A stretch of DNA of 38,860 bases, from NCBI GenBank assembly GCA_009839835.1, contig VXOY01000032.1, positions 1-38,860 on the forward strand, given 5' to 3'. Shown in pieces: positions 2,499 through 38,860 of this stretch. Within the stretch, counting starts at the first letter, position 1, and each line of letters begins with the position of its first letter. The notes under the pieces are model-generated. The model was not told the DNA's origin, ran no database searches, and saw only the letters and a list, made by a program, of their open reading frames with translations. The position numbers and the translations under genes are program-made. The stretch is from Candidatus Spechtbacteria bacterium SB0662_bin_43 (GTDB lineage Bacteria > Patescibacteriota > Minisyncoccia > Spechtbacterales > 2-12-FULL-38-22).

Positions 2499-3026
2499 CT
2501 ACGACAGATGATGTTCTTTATACGCCATTGCCATAATCAATCCATATTTTGTGTACTCTTTTCGTGTCATCCTTCCTCCTGTGAACAAGCCAACAAAACC
2601 ATCTGCGTGCCCTATGTTTTCCTCGCTTGTCAAACCACTCACCTTGCACGCACGGCTCAAATCAATATCGCCCTCAAGCGCAGTATCAACGAGCCGCTTT
2701 GGCAACGCAATGGCAGGCGAAAACCCTGTATAGAGACGGTCGCCATCGTACACCGAAACAACCGACACATCCATATACCCTACCTGCGGAACCTGCATCA
2801 ACCCCGATTCAATGCCAACGCTCAATACGCACTCGGAAAAACTGTTCTTTGCCCTGTTGTGTGATCCTTGTATTGTTTCGTCCAATGAGAGGGGCTGGTC
2901 AGAAACACCAGACTCCACAGAAACACCAACAACTTCTGCATCTTTATACTCATCGTACAACTGCAACCCTTCCTGTATTGCCTGAACCTTTGTATTATTT
3001 TTTGACCCAACGCAAACTTTTATCAT
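2499..3026 (-). CDS. yjjX: inosine/xanthosine triphosphatase (YjjX/DUF84 family)
   Basis: Likely start MIKVCVGSKNNTKVQA (ATG 3026). Family motifs SGVSDQP, G..NRA, VGIESG, GFVGLFT..R. Confidence 0.8.
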   Translation of the reverse strand: MIKVCVGSKNNTKVQAIQEGLQLYDEYKDAEVVGVSVESGVSDQPLSLDETIQGSHNRAKNSFSECVLSVGIESGLMQVPQVGYMDVSVVSVYDGDRLYTGFSPAIALPKRLVDTALEGDIDLSRACKVSGLTSEENIGHADGFVGLFTGGRMTRKEYTKYGLIMAMAYKEHHLS

Positions 3027-3115
3027 AGTTATCACAGTGTAGCACACAATGCATAGAACGCTCAACAACGGCTCTGTGTTGCAAAGAGCATACCCAACCA
3101 TTACAATACCCGTAT

Positions 3116-12324: not shown

Positions 12325-12919
12325 ATATATGTTCTCTGACTGTCAAGCCAAAAAAATGAATTGGTGTATTAAAATGACGTTGGAGCGTTTGCTGCAGAGA
12401 GGCATCAATATCGTACCCAGGGCGGTCATTGAACGAAGAGACTATGCTATCATCTCCTACCCCCATTATACCAAGAAGTCTGTTCAACCATTGCTTTTCA
12501 GCATTCCACAACACCTCTTCTGTTTGATTCGTGCTACACTCTTCTACAATCCCTGCAACATCGTGTAGCGATGACACCAACAAATCCCACATACTCTCGT
12601 CTCGTTCATTGTCGTAGAGCAAGGTATTGCATAGTAGCAAAAAAGAGTAAAGATAGCCATACCCATACATTGTGCGCCCTATATCAGGAAACAAAGAAAT
12701 AGCAGACACACTACGCACAAAAGGAATATGTTTTCCCAAGATAAACACAATCCGCACCACTCCGAAATGATGGAGAAAGTGAGCTTGCTTGGTGGTAATT
12801 TTTTTTCCGCCACGGACTATCATCTGCATTTTACCAAATTCTCGAGTAAAAAAAGATACCTTCATGTCGTGTTCGCCGTAATCGTGCATATTCAATACAA
12901 TAGCGTCTGTTCCGTACAT
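12317..12919 (-). CDS. recO: DNA repair protein RecO
   Basis: AIVL...DYGEHD..V.FFTREFGK...VRG OB-fold start. Lies close upstream of glyQS. Confidence 0.85.
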   Translation of the reverse strand: MYGTDAIVLNMHDYGEHDMKVSFFTREFGKMQMIVRGGKKITTKQAHFLHHFGVVRIVFILGKHIPFVRSVSAISLFPDIGRTMYGYGYLYSFLLLCNTLLYDNERDESMWDLLVSSLHDVAGIVEECSTNQTEEVLWNAEKQWLNRLLGIMGVGDDSIVSSFNDRPGYDIDASLQQTLQRHFNTPIHFFGLTVREHIYG

Positions 12920-12924
12920 ACCAC

Positions 12925-15900
12925 CTATACAAATGGAGCAATAGAAAACATCACAACATCTTTATCGTTCACAGGAACCTCAACTTTTACCTCATTATGA
13001 AGGTGCGACACCCCTTCTTCTAAGGTACGTGCTCCTGTCTCGCTCGCTATTCTCTCCTTATCTCCATCAAAAATATCAGCCACCTGTTGTGGTACGCGGT
13101 AGTAAATAGCAATATCGTCAGACGCATGCAATCCAAGTGTTTTGCGAGCTTCCTGTATTCTGCGAATACATTCGCGTATCATGCCTTCGTGTTTCAGTTC
13201 GGGGGTAAGACGAATATCAAGTCCAACATCGTGCTCTTCGTCGTACTTCCAAGAGCCGTTATGATATTTTTCCTTGACAATTGACTCAACATTGACCTCT
13301 TCTCTGAGAAGATTGGAAAACGCAGACGATACGTGGCGCGGTAGAATAACCGCAGACAGAGGTTGACGTACCCGTATCTTATGCTCTGCCCGTACCCTCA
13401 ACACTGCCTGGGCGTACAGCCGTATAGAGTGCATAGAAGAAAGAATGGTCTTGTCCTGTTTTGTCATCTCCTTTCGTATCTTCCACTCCTCCCAATGAAC
13501 GCTCTGTTTCTGCGTATTGTGGATTGATTGCCACACCTCTTCTGCAATAAATGGAGTGAAAGGAGCGAGTAATTGAGCAGTCTCACTCAACACCCACAAC
13601 GCAACACGCGCTCGTTTCCTCAGCTCTTGAGACGAAGAGGGGCGCTGAAACGCGTTGCGCGATCTCCTGATATACCAACGAGAGAGGTCGTTCACAATAA
13701 AATCTTCCAAAGTGCGAGCCGCGTTCATAACATCGTACTCGTCTAAAAATGTTGCAACAGAAAGAGCAACCTCTCCAAGGCGAATGAGAATCCAGCGCTC
13801 CAGAACACTGTCTGCTCGCGGAGCACGGCTCGGCACTGTCTCGTTCGGAGCATAGGTGCGCACGAACAGGAACGAGTTATAAAACAGTGCAATGCTCGTC
13901 CGTTGCGCCTGCGCCACGTCTTTTTCAGTAAATCGTTTCACGTCCCCAGGGTTGTTCACGGTGAAAAAATACCAACGAACAGCGTCCATCCCATACTTAT
14001 CTGCCAACAATATCGGGTCAACGATATTACCCTTGCTCTTTGACATCTTCTTTCCTTTGCTATCCAGCACATGACCCAACGAGATGCCATTCCGAAATGG
14101 AGGGGTTGTAACGTTCGGAGACTGAACCATTGTACTCACAGCAAGAAGCGTATAAAACCACCCGCGTGTTTGATCTACTGCCTCGCTAATGTAGTCAGCA
14201 GGAAATACCTCACCCTTTTCTATCTGCTGTTTTCGCTGAAAGGGGTAGTGTGTACTTGCGTACGGCATCGCACCAGAATCAAACCATACATCTGCTAAGT
14301 AAGGTTCTCTCCTCATCACTCCTGTGTCGCATTTTTTACACGAGAATGTAATGTCGTCTATGTAGGGTCGGTGAAAATCAAGGTCGCCTTTATCATTGAT
14401 TGGAAACTGAGCGTACGAACAAACTTTATACGCACCAGGGGATAATTTTAATGCATCAAGTCGTGTAATAGTTTCATCTACCGTCCATCCTTGTATCGCC
14501 TTTTCTAATAAAAAGAGAGGGTCTCCATGACTTACAAGAGCAATCTTTTTCCCACTGTATTTTTTTTCTAAATCTTGTATAAAGCGAACCACTCGTTTCT
14601 GTACCTGCGTAAATGTTTCAGCACCCTTTGGAGCGTCAACGAACATCTTTCGTAGATCCGGGTACTCCTCGTCTAATAAACGTACAGATTTTCCCTCCCA
14701 CACGCCGTGTCGTGTTTCTGCTAATCGCTTGTCAACAATAACCTCTACACCCCCGAGTTGTTTCGAAATAATATCTGCTGTCTGCCGTGTTCGCAAAAAT
14801 GGTGATGTAAAAATAATATCAATACCTCCCTTTTTTTGAATATCCTCTGCTGTTTTTTGAACAACCTTACTACCTCTTGGCAACAAATCATACTCTACTG
14901 ATTCAGGATAGTCGCCAGCAAACAGCCCTTTTGAATTTTTTGCAGTCTCTCCATGCCGCACAAGGATATACGAGTTGCGCCCCTTTGTCGCTTCTGCAAT
15001 ATCTTTTCGCGAACCCAGTACAGAAAGGGCATCGCACTCTTGCGCGTCACAACGCCAAATAGGGAGGGGAGTCCCCCAGTAGCGGGAACGGGACAGTGCC
15101 CAGTCCTTTACATCAACAAGCCACTCTCCAAATCGCCCATTCTTGATGTGCTGAGGAACCCAATTGATTGCGTTGTTTGCTTCAATCAAATCGTCTTTCA
15201 ACGCGCTCATCCGTAAAAACCACGAGTGTCGTGCGTAATAAATGAGCGGAAGAGAACAACGCCAACAGAACGGGTACGAGTGTTTATAGCGTTCCTTTTT
15301 ATAGAGCAGTGAACGTTTTTTCAACGCATCAATGATAAGCGAATCCGACTCCTTAGCGTTCTTTCCTTTCCAACCCTTCACAAGGTTATTGAACGCACCG
15401 TCAAGATTAACAGTATGAACAACAGGAAGACCGTGCTTGAGAGCCAATTGATAGTCGTCATCTCCGTACGGAGGAGCAATATGAACAACACCTGTGCCCT
15501 CACCTGTTGTAACAAAATCTGCTCCATACACACAAAACGCTTCGTCTGTATCGCTGTGCTCACGCAAGGCATCAAACGGTGGGTCGTATCGTAACCCAAC
15601 AAGATCTTTCCCTGAAATGGTTCGTATTTTTTTGAACGAATCTCCCAAAACACTCACTTGCTCCTCTGCAATAATAAAGTGTTCGTTCTCCTGTTCTACC
15701 ACTGCGTACGGTATCTTTTCACCAACCGCAAGCGCAATGTTGGCGGGGAGTGTCCAGGGCGTTGTAGTCCAAACCAAAATACTCGTTCCTTCTGGAATAG
15801 TGTCGGATTGAGTGTTGTGGACACGAAACCGCACAAAAACACTCTGGTCAACAACATCTTCATACCCTTGCGCCACTTCGTGCGAGGAAAGCGAGGTGCC

Positions 15901-35638: not shown

Positions 35639-35705
35639 AATACAATTATTCGGATCTACCCATTGCCTCAACCCTTCTTGTGTAATGTATGCTCCGCAAC
35701 AGAGC

Positions 35706-35736
35706 ATATAAACATAATGAACAATTATGGTTTTAC
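35706..35736 (+). other. putative tyrosine-recombinase crossover site A (dif-like), overlapping the pilin A start codon
   Basis: ATATAAACATAA-TGAACAA-TTATGGTTTTAC. Same core as site B, in opposite orientation. Confidence 0.65.
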
Positions 35737-36256
35737 CTTGATTGAGTTACTTGTTGTGATTGCAATTATAGGAACTCTATCTACGATAGGTTTCATTGCT
35801 CTTACATCCTCACAAGAGGGGGCAAATGAGTCCGTGACGGTTAGTGAGTTGCAAACAATACGGTCTGCAATCACTATTAACTATGTATCAGCGGCTGGAC
35901 TACCAGAGGTCGTGGGTGGTAAAGGGGCTATAAAACTAAAGACAAGTACATCGGCAGGTATTTTGGGATGTGAGTTGGCGAATACCGCAAGCTCTATTGG
36001 CACAAAGTTGGCAGGAAAGGTTGAGGGTATTGATTGGAGCAAATATGTGTTCTGTGCTGATAAAGCAGGAAAAGGAGACGGGGCAAGAACGGTTTTGATT
36101 GGTACAGTTGCGGGAGGAGCATTGGATTCAAAACACACATTCTTGGGTGGTAGCGCAAAAGATGTAGTGCCTGTAGGAAATGGAGTAGTAGGCTTAGATT
36201 GTAGCCTAAAAACAGCACCTACAAAAACGATACCCTGTATAAAAATAGAGAAATAA
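35717..36256 (+). CDS. type IV pilin-like protein A (possibly a silent cassette)
   Basis: Class III signal MNNYG|FTLIELLVVIAIIG and 4 Cys in the variable domain. No clear SD. Confidence 0.88.
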   Translation: MNNYGFTLIELLVVIAIIGTLSTIGFIALTSSQEGANESVTVSELQTIRSAITINYVSAAGLPEVVGGKGAIKLKTSTSAGILGCELANTASSIGTKLAGKVEGIDWSKYVFCADKAGKGDGARTVLIGTVAGGALDSKHTFLGGSAKDVVPVGNGVVGLDCSLKTAPTKTIPCIKIEK

Positions 36257-36336: not shown

Positions 36337-36870
36337 TTACGGTGTAAGTGTTCCAACACAGTAAAGCCCTCCTGTTGTACCACCCGCTATACATGTAATT
36401 TGCTTCGGTGCTGTAGAACCACCGTATGTTCCTGCAGCCGCACCGCCATTAGGTAATGCTCCTTTTAGTGTTGTTGCTACTAAAAACTTACTTCCTGTGC
36501 CATCACTACAATAAAAGTAGTTGTCTTTATCCACGCCCGTAAGCTGTCCAATCATACTACCAAGAGGTGTTGCTGATGCTCCCGTTGTCGTTGCTGATGT
36601 CTTTGAGGTGTGGTCAGCCGCTGTGGTGTCTGTGTTTTGTCCATCTAACCTTATACAATCCTCACTTCCAGCAGTTACAATAGGATATACTCTATTTTTG
36701 GAAAGCTCAACAGTCGCTGCAGACCTTATGCTTTGTAGCTCTGCTAACCTTTTTGCATCATCTGCACCATCGCTTGCCCCACTTAGAGCCAAGAACCCAA
36801 TCGTTGATAGAGTTCCTATGATTGCAATAACTACCAGTAACTCAATCAAGGTAAAACCATAATTGTTCAT
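36337..36870 (-). CDS. type IV pilin-like protein B (promoter/RBS-linked copy)
   Basis: MNNYG|FTLIELLVVIAIIG and 4 Cys. GAGGG SD-like motif and TGnTATGAT extended -10 upstream. Confidence 0.9.
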   Translation of the reverse strand: MNNYGFTLIELLVVIAIIGTLSTIGFLALSGASDGADDAKRLAELQSIRSAATVELSKNRVYPIVTAGSEDCIRLDGQNTDTTAADHTSKTSATTTGASATPLGSMIGQLTGVDKDNYFYCSDGTGSKFLVATTLKGALPNGGAAAGTYGGSTAPKQITCIAGGTTGGLYCVGTLTP

Positions 36871-36881
36871 TATGTTAATAC
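36851..36881 (-). other. putative tyrosine-recombinase crossover site B (dif-like), overlapping the pilin B start codon
   Basis: The + strand reads GTAAAACCATAA-TTGTTCA-TTATGTTAATAC. The arms are 9/12 palindromic, and the right arm matches the XerD arm of E. coli dif (TTATGTTAAAT) at 9 consecutive bases. Confidence 0.7.
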
Positions 36882-36930
36882 CCTCTTTTCTTTTTGTTTT
36901 TATCAATATGCTTGATATCATAACAGTATA
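36880..36930 (-). repeat. 51-bp pilin promoter/leader, left copy of an exact inverted repeat
   Basis: Its reverse complement is identical to 38806-38856. Confidence 0.9.
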
Positions 36931-37005
36931 TAATATAAATAATAATTAGATACTCCAATTATACCACACCGACAATAGAGGGTTATACACAAGGGGTGTC
37001 TTTTT

Positions 37006-37926
37006 TTAATTCATAACTTTTGCGACAATATTTTCTATGTCTTGTTGCCCATAATGAAGATATATTTGCGTGGTTACAATGCTTTTATGTCGCATGATTT
37101 CTTTTACAGCATACAGGTTTTGATTATGACGTAGGTATTTTGTTGCTGTATAGTGTCGCAAGGTATGGGGTGAAATAGGATATTGTACATCAGCTCGTAT
37201 GCCAGCCTTTTTAACCATATTATAAATTGCTGTACGACTCATTCTGTTCCACTTCATTGTTTTGGTGTTTTTTGATAAAAAAAGAGCTCTATTTTTTTCT
37301 GTACAACGATGAAGGTATTCTCGTATATGGTTATACGTATGCATCGTGAGAAATACAGTTTCGTTTTTACCTCCTTTACCTCGCACTGTTATGCGTGAAA
37401 CCCTCTTCAGTAACGCCTCTTGGGGTATATCCTCTCTATTGAGGGAACATAACTCGCTGACACGCAGTCCACTGGTTGCAAGAAATGATACAATAGCCCT
37501 ATCACGTAATCCTTCTATGGTAGAGGTATCAAAACTGTTGAGGATATTTTTTATCTCCCTATCGCTGAGAATAACTCTTTTGTGTGTCGTATGCTTTACG
37601 GACTCAAGTAACGCAATACGAATGTTGGCGTATTCCTGTTTGTTCAACCAAGATGCAAAACACTTATATATAGTCATAAAATAACGTATAGATGACATTG
37701 ATAATCCTTGTATTCTCATTTTTCCTATACAACTATTGATGCAATGATGATCTAAGTCTTCAATATATTCTACTTGAATATATTCTGTAAAACGGTTCAT
37801 AGCGTGTGTGTACATCAAAACACTGTTTTGCGACAATCCTCGGTCCTCACAGGAAATAAGGTACTCTTTGATGTAGTGGTTTATATGCGTTTCTCTTCTA
37901 CTCTTTGTTGTTGATTGATTTTTCAT
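37006..37926 (-). CDS. Xer-like tyrosine recombinase
   Basis: 306 aa with catalytic R (SGLRVSEL), K (GKGGK), HxLR (HTLRH), H (MRHKS) and Y (TTQIY). N-terminal SAM-like core-binding domain. Confidence 0.93.
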   Translation of the reverse strand: MKNQSTTKSRRETHINHYIKEYLISCEDRGLSQNSVLMYTHAMNRFTEYIQVEYIEDLDHHCINSCIGKMRIQGLSMSSIRYFMTIYKCFASWLNKQEYANIRIALLESVKHTTHKRVILSDREIKNILNSFDTSTIEGLRDRAIVSFLATSGLRVSELCSLNREDIPQEALLKRVSRITVRGKGGKNETVFLTMHTYNHIREYLHRCTEKNRALFLSKNTKTMKWNRMSRTAIYNMVKKAGIRADVQYPISPHTLRHYTATKYLRHNQNLYAVKEIMRHKSIVTTQIYLHYGQQDIENIVAKVMN

Positions 37927-38000
37927 ACTATAGTGATAATTGATACGATATTTTCATAGAGTAGATTACTATTTCGGTCAAGAAATTCGTTGCTCAAAGA

Positions 38001-38024
38001 AAAAATGCTCATCACAGCATTTTT
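38001..38024 (-). terminator. hairpin/terminator between the NYN gene and the recombinase
   Basis: AAAAATGCT/AGCATTTTT stem with T-rich flanks. Confidence 0.5.
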
Positions 38025-38027
38025 GTT

Positions 38028-38082
38028 AAGGAGTGTAAGGGTGTTAGTACCTAAGCTACTCTTTTCTTTTTTTAGTTTAAAC
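38028..38082 (+). repeat. diverged second copy of the NYN-adjacent structured element
   Basis: GGTGTTAGTACCTAAGCTACTCTTTTCTTTTTTTAGTTTAAAC versus GGTGTTGGTGCCTAAGCTACCCCTTTCTTTTTTTTTAATTTAAAC (38193-38237). Confidence 0.8.
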
Positions 38083-38133
38083 ACCCTACAGTATGTATTT
38101 CGTGAAATAAAAACAGTGTGTGGATAATGCTTA

Positions 38134-38162
38134 TTGACAAAAAAATGGTGGGGATTTATAAT
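38134..38162 (+). promoter_or_regulatory. perfect consensus sigma70 promoter
   Basis: TTGACA-17 nt-TATAAT, pointing at the 3' end of the NYN gene with no ORF downstream. Confidence 0.85.
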
Positions 38163-38168
38163 GGAGAT

Positions 38169-38228
38169 GTAACCACGAAGGGGGGCGCGAACGGTGTTGG
38201 TGCCTAAGCTACCCCTTTCTTTTTTTTT
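38169..38228 (+). ncRNA. putative ~60-nt structured small RNA, convergent with the NYN gene
   Basis: Consensus promoter, stems AAGGGG/CCCCTT and GGCGC/GTGCC, a terminal U tract, and a second covarying copy nearby. Confidence 0.6.
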
Positions 38229-38712
38229 AATTTAAACGTTCGATTTTATGTTTTATAGTCGAGAGATGCATTGCGTACCTGTCTCCAATGCTTTTGTATA
38301 ATGAAGATTTGTTTTTATTAGGGAATAGTATTTTTCCGAATTTATTTTCATCAATAAGAAAATTTACCAATTTATAATAATCACCATCTCCTGAAACAAT
38401 AAAAATCTTTTCAATATCGCTTCGTTTTAGTAAGGCTTTCATAACAGAAAATACAAGATCAACATCAATGTTTCCCTTTTTAGGAGACAGCATTTTTTCA
38501 TTATGATCCTTGAATTGAAGAATATACCCAATTTGTTGTAGTGTGTTATATAAATCTGTTTTTCCCGCTTTTACATACCCAAAAAAGCAATACACCTCTT
38601 CAATATTGTATTTATCCCGTAAATAAATACGAAATTTTTTATAATCTACTCTCCACCCATATTTTTGGGTTCCATAGTATAAGTTTTGTTCATCTATAAA
38701 TGCGATATTCAT
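38227..38712 (-). CDS. NYN domain protein (LabA/DUF88, PIN-like RNase fold)
   Basis: Acidic active-site motifs AFIDEQNL, KGNIDVDL, IVSGDGDY. Confidence 0.9.
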   Translation of the reverse strand: MNIAFIDEQNLYYGTQKYGWRVDYKKFRIYLRDKYNIEEVYCFFGYVKAGKTDLYNTLQQIGYILQFKDHNEKMLSPKKGNIDVDLVFSVMKALLKRSDIEKIFIVSGDGDYYKLVNFLIDENKFGKILFPNKNKSSLYKSIGDRYAMHLSTIKHKIERLN

Positions 38713-38805
38713 AGGTTTTGTTGCTTAGATATATATCTTATTATTATACAGCATTTATGCTTGTTTTTCTATTTTTAGAATACATAGAATAATCGTAACT
38801 CATTG

Positions 38806-38860
38806 TATACTGTTATGATATCAAGCATATTGATAAAAACAAAAAGAAAAGAGGGTTTTA
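38806..38860 (+). repeat. right copy of the pilin promoter/leader repeat; runs off the window edge
   Basis: 54 of 55 nt match the reverse complement of 36876-36930, and the first 51 are identical. Confidence 0.9.

Follow-up and report, generated by a model that had tools for sequence, protein, structure and literature searches.

A structured RNA gene tied to one clade of NYN-domain nucleases in ultra-small bacteria: a candidate nuclease/RNA-antidote module

Introduction

The window analysed in this study is a stretch of 38,860 nucleotides from Candidatus Spechtbacteria bacterium SB0662_bin_43 (assembly GCA_009839835.1, contig VXOY01000032.1, here C1), one of the 32 contigs of a genome of 755,616 bases. 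Near its end, a gene for a putative nuclease with an NYN domain converges with a short segment that was described in an earlier note, made by inspection of the letters, as a strongly promoted, structured small RNA and a candidate antitoxin of the nuclease. The question raised by this locus is whether the segment is a gene in its own right, whether it belongs with the nuclease, and what the two might do together. The RNA was found to be physically tied to one NYN clade, in ultra-small bacteria as well as in prophage-like contigs, and to form a conserved, strand-specific gene family with a predicted structure in which a hairpin stem (P1) and a helix of two base pairs (P1b) are separated from a short P2 by a GAAN/UNA internal loop. 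As to function, the sequence comparisons presented here give about an even chance that the locus is an autonomous module of an NYN nuclease and an RNA antidote, type III-like in its logic.

Linkage of the RNA to NYN genes

A scan starting from the NYN protein, with one genome per species, identified 532 NYN relatives, of which the best 80 loci, those most similar to the query, were kept. By record title these belong mostly to Parcubacteria-type bacteria, Saccharibacteria, Peregrinibacteria/Peribacteria and Gracilibacteria, with six labelled otherwise; the organism labels of metagenome bins, and the "viral" calls used below, are as deposited. An RNA unit was identified beside all 80 NYN homologues, being convergent with the NYN gene at 77 and co-directional with it at three. 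A covariance model (R1), based on five ungapped copies and a structure drawn up from their sequences, matched the convergent strand next to the NYN stop in 75 of the 80 loci (E 0.005 or better), with a broader model (R2), applied unfiltered, adding L075 and L096 as convergent. E-values of these home-built models are rough. At L113 and L069 the RNA unit is situated upstream of NYN and is co-directional with it (R2 E of about 1e-6 per genome), while at L077 it lies downstream, also co-directional and with a promoter of its own. A promoter-hairpin unit in front of NYN was also found at L136. Four of the convergent loci (L061, L063, L075 and L110) carry a simplified, plain hairpin.

Searches starting from the RNA led back to the same genes. 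R1 gave 12 hits outside the own genome at E up to 0.01 among 60 relatives, of which four (in G021, G015, G020 and G050) were convergent with an NYN gene whose 3' end they abut or overlap, the NYN proteins being 42-52% identical; the top three hits were all among these four. The other eight (E 6e-5 to 8e-3) had no NYN within approximately 1.5 kb and were taken as ordinary terminators. In an even sample of 150 genomes across the phylum, R2 gave one hit in each of five (E 1e-5 or better), and all five convergently abut an NYN gene. The module is patchily distributed; of 61 related genomes, 22 have an NYN match with an E-value no higher than 1e-20. A second NYN subfamily, approximately 40% identical, occurs in more of the relatives and has a related but different hairpin (type 2) in the same place at 12 of 16 loci (R2 E <1); its 5' start and the geometry of its promoter are those of the main RNA.

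On viral contigs of IMG/VR, a convergent RNA was found beside six of six NYN relatives (40-49% identity; E 1.6e-6 to 0.057), at loci with a G+C content of 45-62%. A CI-like repressor (helix-turn-helix with S24 peptidase) is encoded immediately upstream of NYN at L142 and L143, an integrase immediately past the RNA at L143 and L144, so that prophage-like copies can lie between repressor and integrase, and the module of L141 is situated among head-morphogenesis genes. At L144 (62% G+C), two head-to-tail RNA units (2982-3085, with a period of approximately 47 nt) follow a single promoter-like region and occupy the space from NYN to the integrase. No other tandem array was found, and this one received no Tandem Repeats Finder score. 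A search for RNA-only mimics on viral contigs gave no hits for one exact degenerate pattern, a single pattern being no evidence of absence.

The earlier note had named the lack of a conserved motif next to NYN homologues as something that would speak against its proposal, and had suggested building a covariance model for comparison with Rfam. The motif is present at 80/80 loci, at the six viral loci and at the five reached from the RNA; the RNA covaries, its promoter is conserved, and the family is absent from Rfam 15. The outcome of this check thus speaks strongly for the proposal.

Copies in the genome of origin

The genome of the window is unusual in carrying seven to eight copies of the RNA. 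R1 identified eight at E 3.2e-6 or better, including three from outside its seed (C12, C29 and copy A of C1), while two weak hits (C32 and C17) were taken as ordinary terminators. Copies adjoin an intact NYN gene on C1, C31 (NYN 67% identical) and C29 (44% identical), with second copies approximately 150 nt further out on two of these contigs (C1 copy A and C31a).

On other contigs the NYN gene was found to have decayed while RNA and promoter persist. C16 retains a remnant that covers residues 59-160 and is interrupted by a stop codon, C12 a 36-amino-acid C-terminal piece, and the copy of C13 is an orphan with no adjoining NYN. The same was observed in Saccharibacteria, where the NYN of L136 is cut to residues 80-158 and the RNA of L137 is an orphan. 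Approximately 100 nt past the C13 orphan, on the opposite strand (C13 ~12900-13080; L005 1540-1720), a frame of 30 codons that is Lys-rich and then hydrophobic was read by eye.

Structure and conservation of the RNA

Among 87 model-aligned sequences, 96.4% of 1173 cells were paired and compensatory changes were identified in 12 of 14 pairs. None of 500 shuffles attained these values, and sliding the partner strand lowered pairing to 38-75%. The first P1b pair, for example, is C-G in 74 sequences, G-C in 11 and U-A in one. The same pairs were recovered from an ungapped MAFFT alignment (A3) of only five copies, three of the pairs being compensatory there, with five compensatory pairs in a set of 12 sequences. 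P2 contains U.G in 50/87 and G.U in 52/87 sequences, pairs that would mismatch on the NYN-sense strand, and the opposite strand of the window copy was predicted to fold worse than the RNA strand (-13.3 kcal/mol, z -0.06). Unpaired bases are conserved as well: A2 in 99%, C3 in 90%, A17 in 95%, A18 in 97%, U39 in 98% and A41 in 100%. The GAAN/UNA loop seems to resemble the UAA/GAN internal-loop motif.

These data revise the helices drawn in the earlier note. Its P1 is real, with one G-C to A-U exchange in copy A of the window, while its P2 (GGCGC/GTGCC) is not maintained in relatives, so that the C-G to U-A change it had counted as compensatory belongs to a wrong helix. The TAAGCTA linker, which it had taken to be unpaired, is half paired in the structure supported by covariation.

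In relatives, the NYN ORF (open reading frame) commonly extends 4-33 nt into the RNA gene, and a coding constraint was considered as the source of the conservation of the RNA. This was rejected. The overlapping protein tails are read in at least three frames with varied stops (...KKEKGS, ...KEKGSLGS, ...KKKRAP, ...HK), which indicates that the constraint acts on the nucleotides and not on the protein, and the NYN gene of the window ends before the hairpin. Furthermore, the NYN proteins are approximately 50% identical, while the RNA retains most of its positions. A role as a guide RNA, which the earlier note had also suggested, was likewise discarded, as the RNA has no variable segment; its 5' leader is 6-10 nt long and conserved, and its P2 loop is 4-7 nt long.

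The 3' strand of the RNA (window 38205-38213; alignment A6) reads UAAGGAG or UUAGGAG in most relatives, which is Shine-Dalgarno-like, while copies of the own genome have UAAGCUAC or UUAGCCAC. This likeness may be a coincidence, since the change is compensated in P1b.

The RNA gene in the window

Coordinates of the features of the locus are given in Table 1. As the earlier note had stated, the perfect TTGACA-17-TATAAT promoter of copy B drives no ORF: none of at least 30 amino acids starts on the + strand between it and position 38541. It is the sole perfect promoter among nine promoter-like sites at 37000-38860, the number of such sites there not being above that of shuffles (9 vs mean 10.3). 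The G+C-rich P1 stem followed by nine U residues has the form of an intrinsic (Rho-independent) terminator, whose U tract does meet the NYN stop codon as the note described. A simple terminator scan missed this hairpin because its rule requires a loop of 3-8 nt. The terminator is part of the RNA gene and not an alternative to it.

The second copy, which the note had placed about 150 bp away, was confirmed; copies A and B form a 37-nt repeat that is 86% identical, at a spacing of 153 nt by repeat comparison within the window. A degenerate 20-nt core occurs twice in the window against 0.00 expected. The 10-mer CCTAAGCTAC also occurs twice, with 1.43 expected, and at least two matches were present in 38 of 100 shuffles, so that it is not significant alone.

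Searching positions 37800-38860 against Rfam 15 returned only BjrC68 (E 4; 12.4 bits, with a gathering score of 39), and this near-match aligns with the terminator part only. With E-values up to 1 admitted, Rfam gave no match at the position of the RNA in seven loci of relatives. Searches for tRNA and tmRNA genes in the window were likewise negative.

Table 1. Positions of the RNA copies, their parts and the NYN gene in the window
Feature	Position	Strand	Remarks	Score
RNA copy B gene	38169..38228	+	start inferred at ~38167-38170; covariance-model span 38174-38228	81.4 bits, E 6e-21
RNA copy A	38022..38075	+	degenerate: 3-nt deletion, no comparable promoter; outside seed	33.2 bits, E 3.2e-6
Copy B promoter, TTGACA-17 nt-TATAAT	38134..38162	+	consensus match	12/12 positions
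P1 5' strand	38177..38184	+	pairs with 38212-38219; 8 pairs, 7 with compensatory changes (87 sequences)	
P1b 5' strand	38187..38188	+	pairs with 38208-38209; both pairs covary	
Internal loop, 5' side, GAAC	38189..38192	+	opposite UAA 38205-38207; unpaired bases conserved	
P2 hairpin (GGUG / loop UUGG / UGCC)	38193..38204	+	pairs 38193-38196/38201-38204; G.U pairs possible on + strand only	
P1 3' strand	38212..38219	+	folding and covariation	
Intrinsic terminator U tract (9 U)	38220..38228	+	overlaps NYN stop codon 38227-38229 on the other strand	
NYN-domain (LabA-like, PIN-like) nuclease gene	38227..38712	-	161 amino acids; PF01936; acidic catalytic residues intact	
Promoter-like site 5' of NYN (TAGAAA, 17 nt, TATAAT)	38743..38771	-	consensus match only	10/12 positions
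DnaA-box-like 9-mer TGTGGATAA	38119..38127	+	6 nt upstream of copy B -35	

Promoters of the RNA family

The promoter is conserved together with the RNA. A promoter matching at least 9 of 12 consensus positions, with its -10 element ending 11-14 nt before the motif, was found at 74 of 85 copies vs 2.2% of 2000 control positions, and at least 10 of 12 positions were matched at the fixed distance in 53 of 85 copies vs 0.35% of controls. In the own genome, every copy except copy A of C1 has a strong promoter at a constant distance, and the exact TTGACA-17-TATAAT is present at C1 copy B, C13, C16 and C12.

A DnaA-box-like 9-mer is also situated 5' of the -35 element. The sequence TTATCCACA is the DnaA-box consensus, with TGTGGATAA being its reverse complement. 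With up to one mismatch, this 9-mer was identified in 6 of 12 copies from the own genome and four relatives of its class and in 6 of 10 type 2 copies, with 4/75 in the wide set, where the background is 3.8%. As a family-wide feature it was therefore rejected, its enrichment being confined to the own class. The 9-mer or its complement was also observed at C31:309, L118, L121-L123, L125 and L128, and the own genome contains 20 perfect DnaA boxes, four of which adjoin a TTGAC.

The NYN protein

PF01936 was the only Pfam family found on the 161-amino-acid protein of the window (E 5.3e-14; 53.4 bits with a cut-off of 24.2; residues 5-134), which can be described as a bare NYN domain. Residues D7, N10, D83, D85, D109 and D111 are invariant among six homologues with identities of 41-67%. 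The AlphaFold2 model (pLDDT 78, pTM 0.78) has a PIN-like alpha/beta fold, for which the best PDB matches were 2qip (VPA0982; E 1.8e-6, TM 0.63) and the NYN domain of MARF1 (5yaa and 6fdl; TM of approximately 0.6); 2qip was also matched by sequence profile (E 1e-8). NCBIfam has no family for the protein, PADLOC returned only a weak NYN model and HEC-09, and no NYN match was found in INPHARED and PLSDB with either the protein of the window or a viral one. Bacterial NYN (PF01936/COG1432) proteins are very numerous, and NYN.COG1432 is listed as of unknown function in bacteria, with no RNA partner mentioned in the available excerpt of the survey describing them (PMC5499597).

In most NYN genes of the relatives (L034-L113), a TATAAT-like box, in many cases of the extended-10 kind (TG), ends approximately 7 nt before the ATG. 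Most NYN messages of the clade are thus probably leaderless. Pairing of the RNA with a 5' untranslated region of NYN was considered on this account and is unlikely. The NYN gene of the window is atypical in this respect, its best -10 element lying approximately 30 nt upstream of the ATG.

Proposed mechanism and its alternatives

In the mechanism proposed for the module, the RNA would be produced in large excess and would be recognised directly by the NYN protein, keeping the nuclease harmless, as its main mode of action, in keeping with the logic of type III systems. In the common tail-to-tail layout, it would additionally base-pair with the NYN mRNA at its 3' end. Once the unstable RNA was lost or diluted, the nuclease would be freed, and the module could serve as an addiction or phage-defence cassette. 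Several traits resemble those of toxin-antitoxin systems and speak for this proposal: the changing neighbours, the patchy and at times multi-copy distribution, the decay of NYN with persistence of the RNA and its promoter, the placing of prophage-like copies between repressor and integrase, and the intact catalytic residues. A more specific form of this proposal, put forward tentatively as something short of probable, is that the module represents a new RNA-protein toxin-antitoxin or defence class, with the first NYN nuclease to be neutralised by a single-hairpin RNA by way of the GAAN/UNA loop, spread across Patescibacteria and situated in the immunity region of elements that resemble temperate phages; in the own lineage, the DnaA-box-like site could make the freeing of the nuclease depend on the state of replication.

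Direct recognition by the protein is favoured over pairing with the message for several reasons, and the most serious rival is best weighed beside them. In this rival, which is unlikely as the whole explanation, the RNA would have no protein partner and would act as a pure cis-antisense regulator of the type I kind, pairing with the mRNA of the convergent NYN gene at its fully complementary 3' end, with cleavage by RNase III or blocked 3' end formation lowering NYN expression. Such an RNA is expected to overlap tail to tail with its target, as it does at 77 of the 80 loci (from -29 to +33 nt), and likewise at the six viral loci and at the five reached from the RNA; a gene for RNase III is present in the genome. 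The near-universal overlap together with RNase III is why antisense control of the NYN 3' end has to be taken seriously, whether as a rival or as a further layer. The different hairpin of the 40% subfamily in the same convergent place, and the four loci with only a plain long hairpin there, would also be accommodated by it, and bsrG/SR4 provides a precedent for antitoxins that overlap at the 3' end (part of PMC3834814). However, antisense pairing needs no conserved sequence and no conserved loops, yet conservation of the unpaired loop bases reaches 95-100% even between very distant lineages. Three layouts of the unit are kept, and in two of them the RNA is not complementary to the NYN message: L113, L069 and L077 retain the order of promoter, RNA and terminator without it. 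Orphan copies also persist with perfect promoters (C13 and L137), and most NYN messages, appearing to be leaderless, offer no 5' target. The preference of the earlier note for action by structure over antisense pairing gains support from the three co-directional layouts without overlap and from the conserved unpaired bases.

Several points weigh against the antidote proposal, besides the overlap and the RNase III gene, which are as a cis-antisense regulator would have them. The co-directional exceptions are few (3 of 80 loci and two relatives) and share one common RNA subtype. Unlike known type III antitoxins, the RNA has no tandem repeat array and no predicted pseudoknot, although no search aimed at pseudoknots was made. 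Alignments A4, A6 and A7 are model-fitted and favour the structure of the model, the fold of copy B taken as a single sequence is ordinary (-19.7 kcal/mol, z -1.49, with 15 of 200 shuffles equal), and part of the conservation of the RNA could stem from its function as a terminator and from its overlap with the end of the NYN coding sequence. Furthermore, no toxin role has been demonstrated for PF01936 NYN proteins in the portion of PMC5499597 available.

Two further explanations were considered. The RNA may be a cofactor, scaffold or preferred substrate of the NYN protein, forming a ribonucleoprotein effector with it and being no antidote, an explanation that is improbable although it draws on the same linkage and conservation as the antidote proposal. 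The active site of NYN domains is exposed, and additional domains are thought to give them their specificity (excerpt of PMC5499597); the protein of the window is a bare NYN domain. Against this explanation, the RNA has no variable, guide-like segment, its leader being conserved and its P2 loop short, and persistence of the RNA after deletion or truncation of NYN fits an antidote better than a cofactor. At the far end, the RNA may have no function at all beyond that of a terminator, perhaps a bidirectional one, of convergent units, with the promoter match being incidental. The hairpin and U tract at the end of NYN, the alignment of BjrC68 with the terminator part alone and the ordinary fold z-score would agree with this. 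It is nevertheless highly improbable: the promoter stands at a fixed distance, orphans keep it at 12/12 positions, the internal-loop bases are conserved, the inner helices covary, and the unit is kept where it lies upstream of NYN or co-directional with it. The fallback of the earlier note, that the element was only a terminator, is essentially excluded by the linkage, the covariation and the conserved promoter.

Comparison with known toxin-antitoxin systems

As in type III toxin-antitoxin systems (ToxIN, AbiQ/antiQ, CptIN, TenpIN), a ribonuclease-type protein is linked here to a small structured RNA that is set up for excess. The type of RNA tracks the subfamily of the nuclease, the module is found on prophage-like DNA, two head-to-tail RNA units are present at one viral locus, and at L113 and L069 the order is promoter, RNA, intrinsic terminator and nuclease gene, as in the operon of promoter, RNA, terminator and toxin that is among the defining features of the type as given for ToxIN in the accessible part of PMC5086642. 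The differences are nonetheless substantial. The nuclease is NYN/PIN-like and does not have a ToxN, CptN or TenpN fold; the RNA is a single hairpin of 55-60 nt with an internal loop, in contrast to tandem pseudoknot repeats of 34-45 nt; and 77/80 loci are convergent with separate promoters, unlike the single operon of type III systems. The consensus of the present RNA is a nested hairpin. The two copies in the window do not amount to a repeat array of the type III kind, being 153 nt apart, downstream of NYN and convergent with it, and most loci have a single unit. Judged by the defining features in PMC5086642, the module falls outside ToxIN, CptIN and TenpIN, as the toxin fold differs, a tandem repeat array is lacking and there is usually no single operon. 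The link to type III systems drawn in the earlier note does not hold as one of family membership, with toxin fold, repeat array and operon layout all being different.

Type I systems such as bsrG/SR4 of B. subtilis are similar in that the RNA is convergent with the toxin gene and overlaps its 3' end with its own, in having a strong RNA promoter and in the presence of RNase III in the genome. Other type I loci with convergent, 3'-overlapping antitoxin RNAs are txpA/RatA and the par locus of pAD1. Antisense in the type I sense is indicated by the geometry of the present loci only, and L113, L069 and L077 do not have that geometry. The module differs from type I systems in encoding a soluble nuclease of 161 amino acids where those encode a small hydrophobic peptide, in the conservation of RNA sequence and unpaired loops at phylum-level distances, and in having co-directional variants without overlap. 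Lacking a small hydrophobic toxin, the module does not qualify as a classical type I locus.

VapBC toxins and other PIN toxins share the PIN-like superfamily and at least four conserved acidic residues with the NYN protein (part of PMC5499597). However, this protein belongs to the NYN branch and not to that of VapC, and its conserved neighbour is an RNA, with no conserved adjacent gene for an antitoxin protein. LabA-like NYN proteins (PF01936, COG1432; 2qip and the MARF1 NYN domain) are its relatives by Pfam, sequence and fold matches, the difference being the attached RNA gene, by which the present clade is defined; the section of PMC5499597 available describes no RNA partner. A literature search on NYN, COG1432 and LabA-like proteins and on RNAs of Patescibacteria, judged mostly from titles and the openings of abstracts, found no description of such an RNA, and no publication joining NYN with type III toxin-antitoxin systems was found.

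Through an obligate RNA partner, one large clade of bacterial NYN proteins of unknown function becomes directly accessible to experiment for the first time, and an RNA family that is widespread, well supported and missing from Rfam 15 can enter annotation pipelines. If the antidote reading is true, the module would bring to RNA-antitoxin systems a nuclease fold and an RNA architecture that are new to them, and would point to a defence or addiction cassette in bacteria of the Candidate Phyla Radiation (CPR). The natural occurrence of convergent and co-directional variants makes type I-like and type III-like mechanisms cleanly testable against each other.

Neighbouring genes and mobile context

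Neighbours differ across the loci, with 75/75 ORFs on the NYN side and 72/72 on the RNA side being different, and there is no third conserved partner. They range from housekeeping genes to AbiEii, type I restriction-modification, HNH, Bro-N and reverse transcriptase genes. At L055, L071 and L078 the module is situated within type I restriction-modification clusters, with HsdR/HsdM upstream and HsdS just past the RNA.

The earlier note had connected the module with a nearby recombinase and had suggested that it might stabilise that segment. This connection was not borne out among relatives, where none of the 75 NYN-side and none of the 72 RNA-side neighbours is a recombinase, and stabilisation of a recombinase segment was rejected on these counts; two of the six viral loci do have an integrase. 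The recombinase of the window is similar to viral integrases only at the level of the family.

An inverted repeat of 59 nt (97% identical; 36876-36934/38802-38860) encloses a segment with the tyrosine recombinase (37006-37926), NYN and the two copies of the RNA. This repeat continues past the end of the window and recurs at the start of contig C31. Another, of 105 nt (88%; 35698-35802/36785-36889), joins the 5' ends of two opposed pilin-like genes (35663-36256 on the + strand and 36337-36921 on the - strand), whose products have a common N-terminus. From its sequence, the region of the inverted repeats looks like an invertible region of the shufflon type, which would probably explain the contig breaks.

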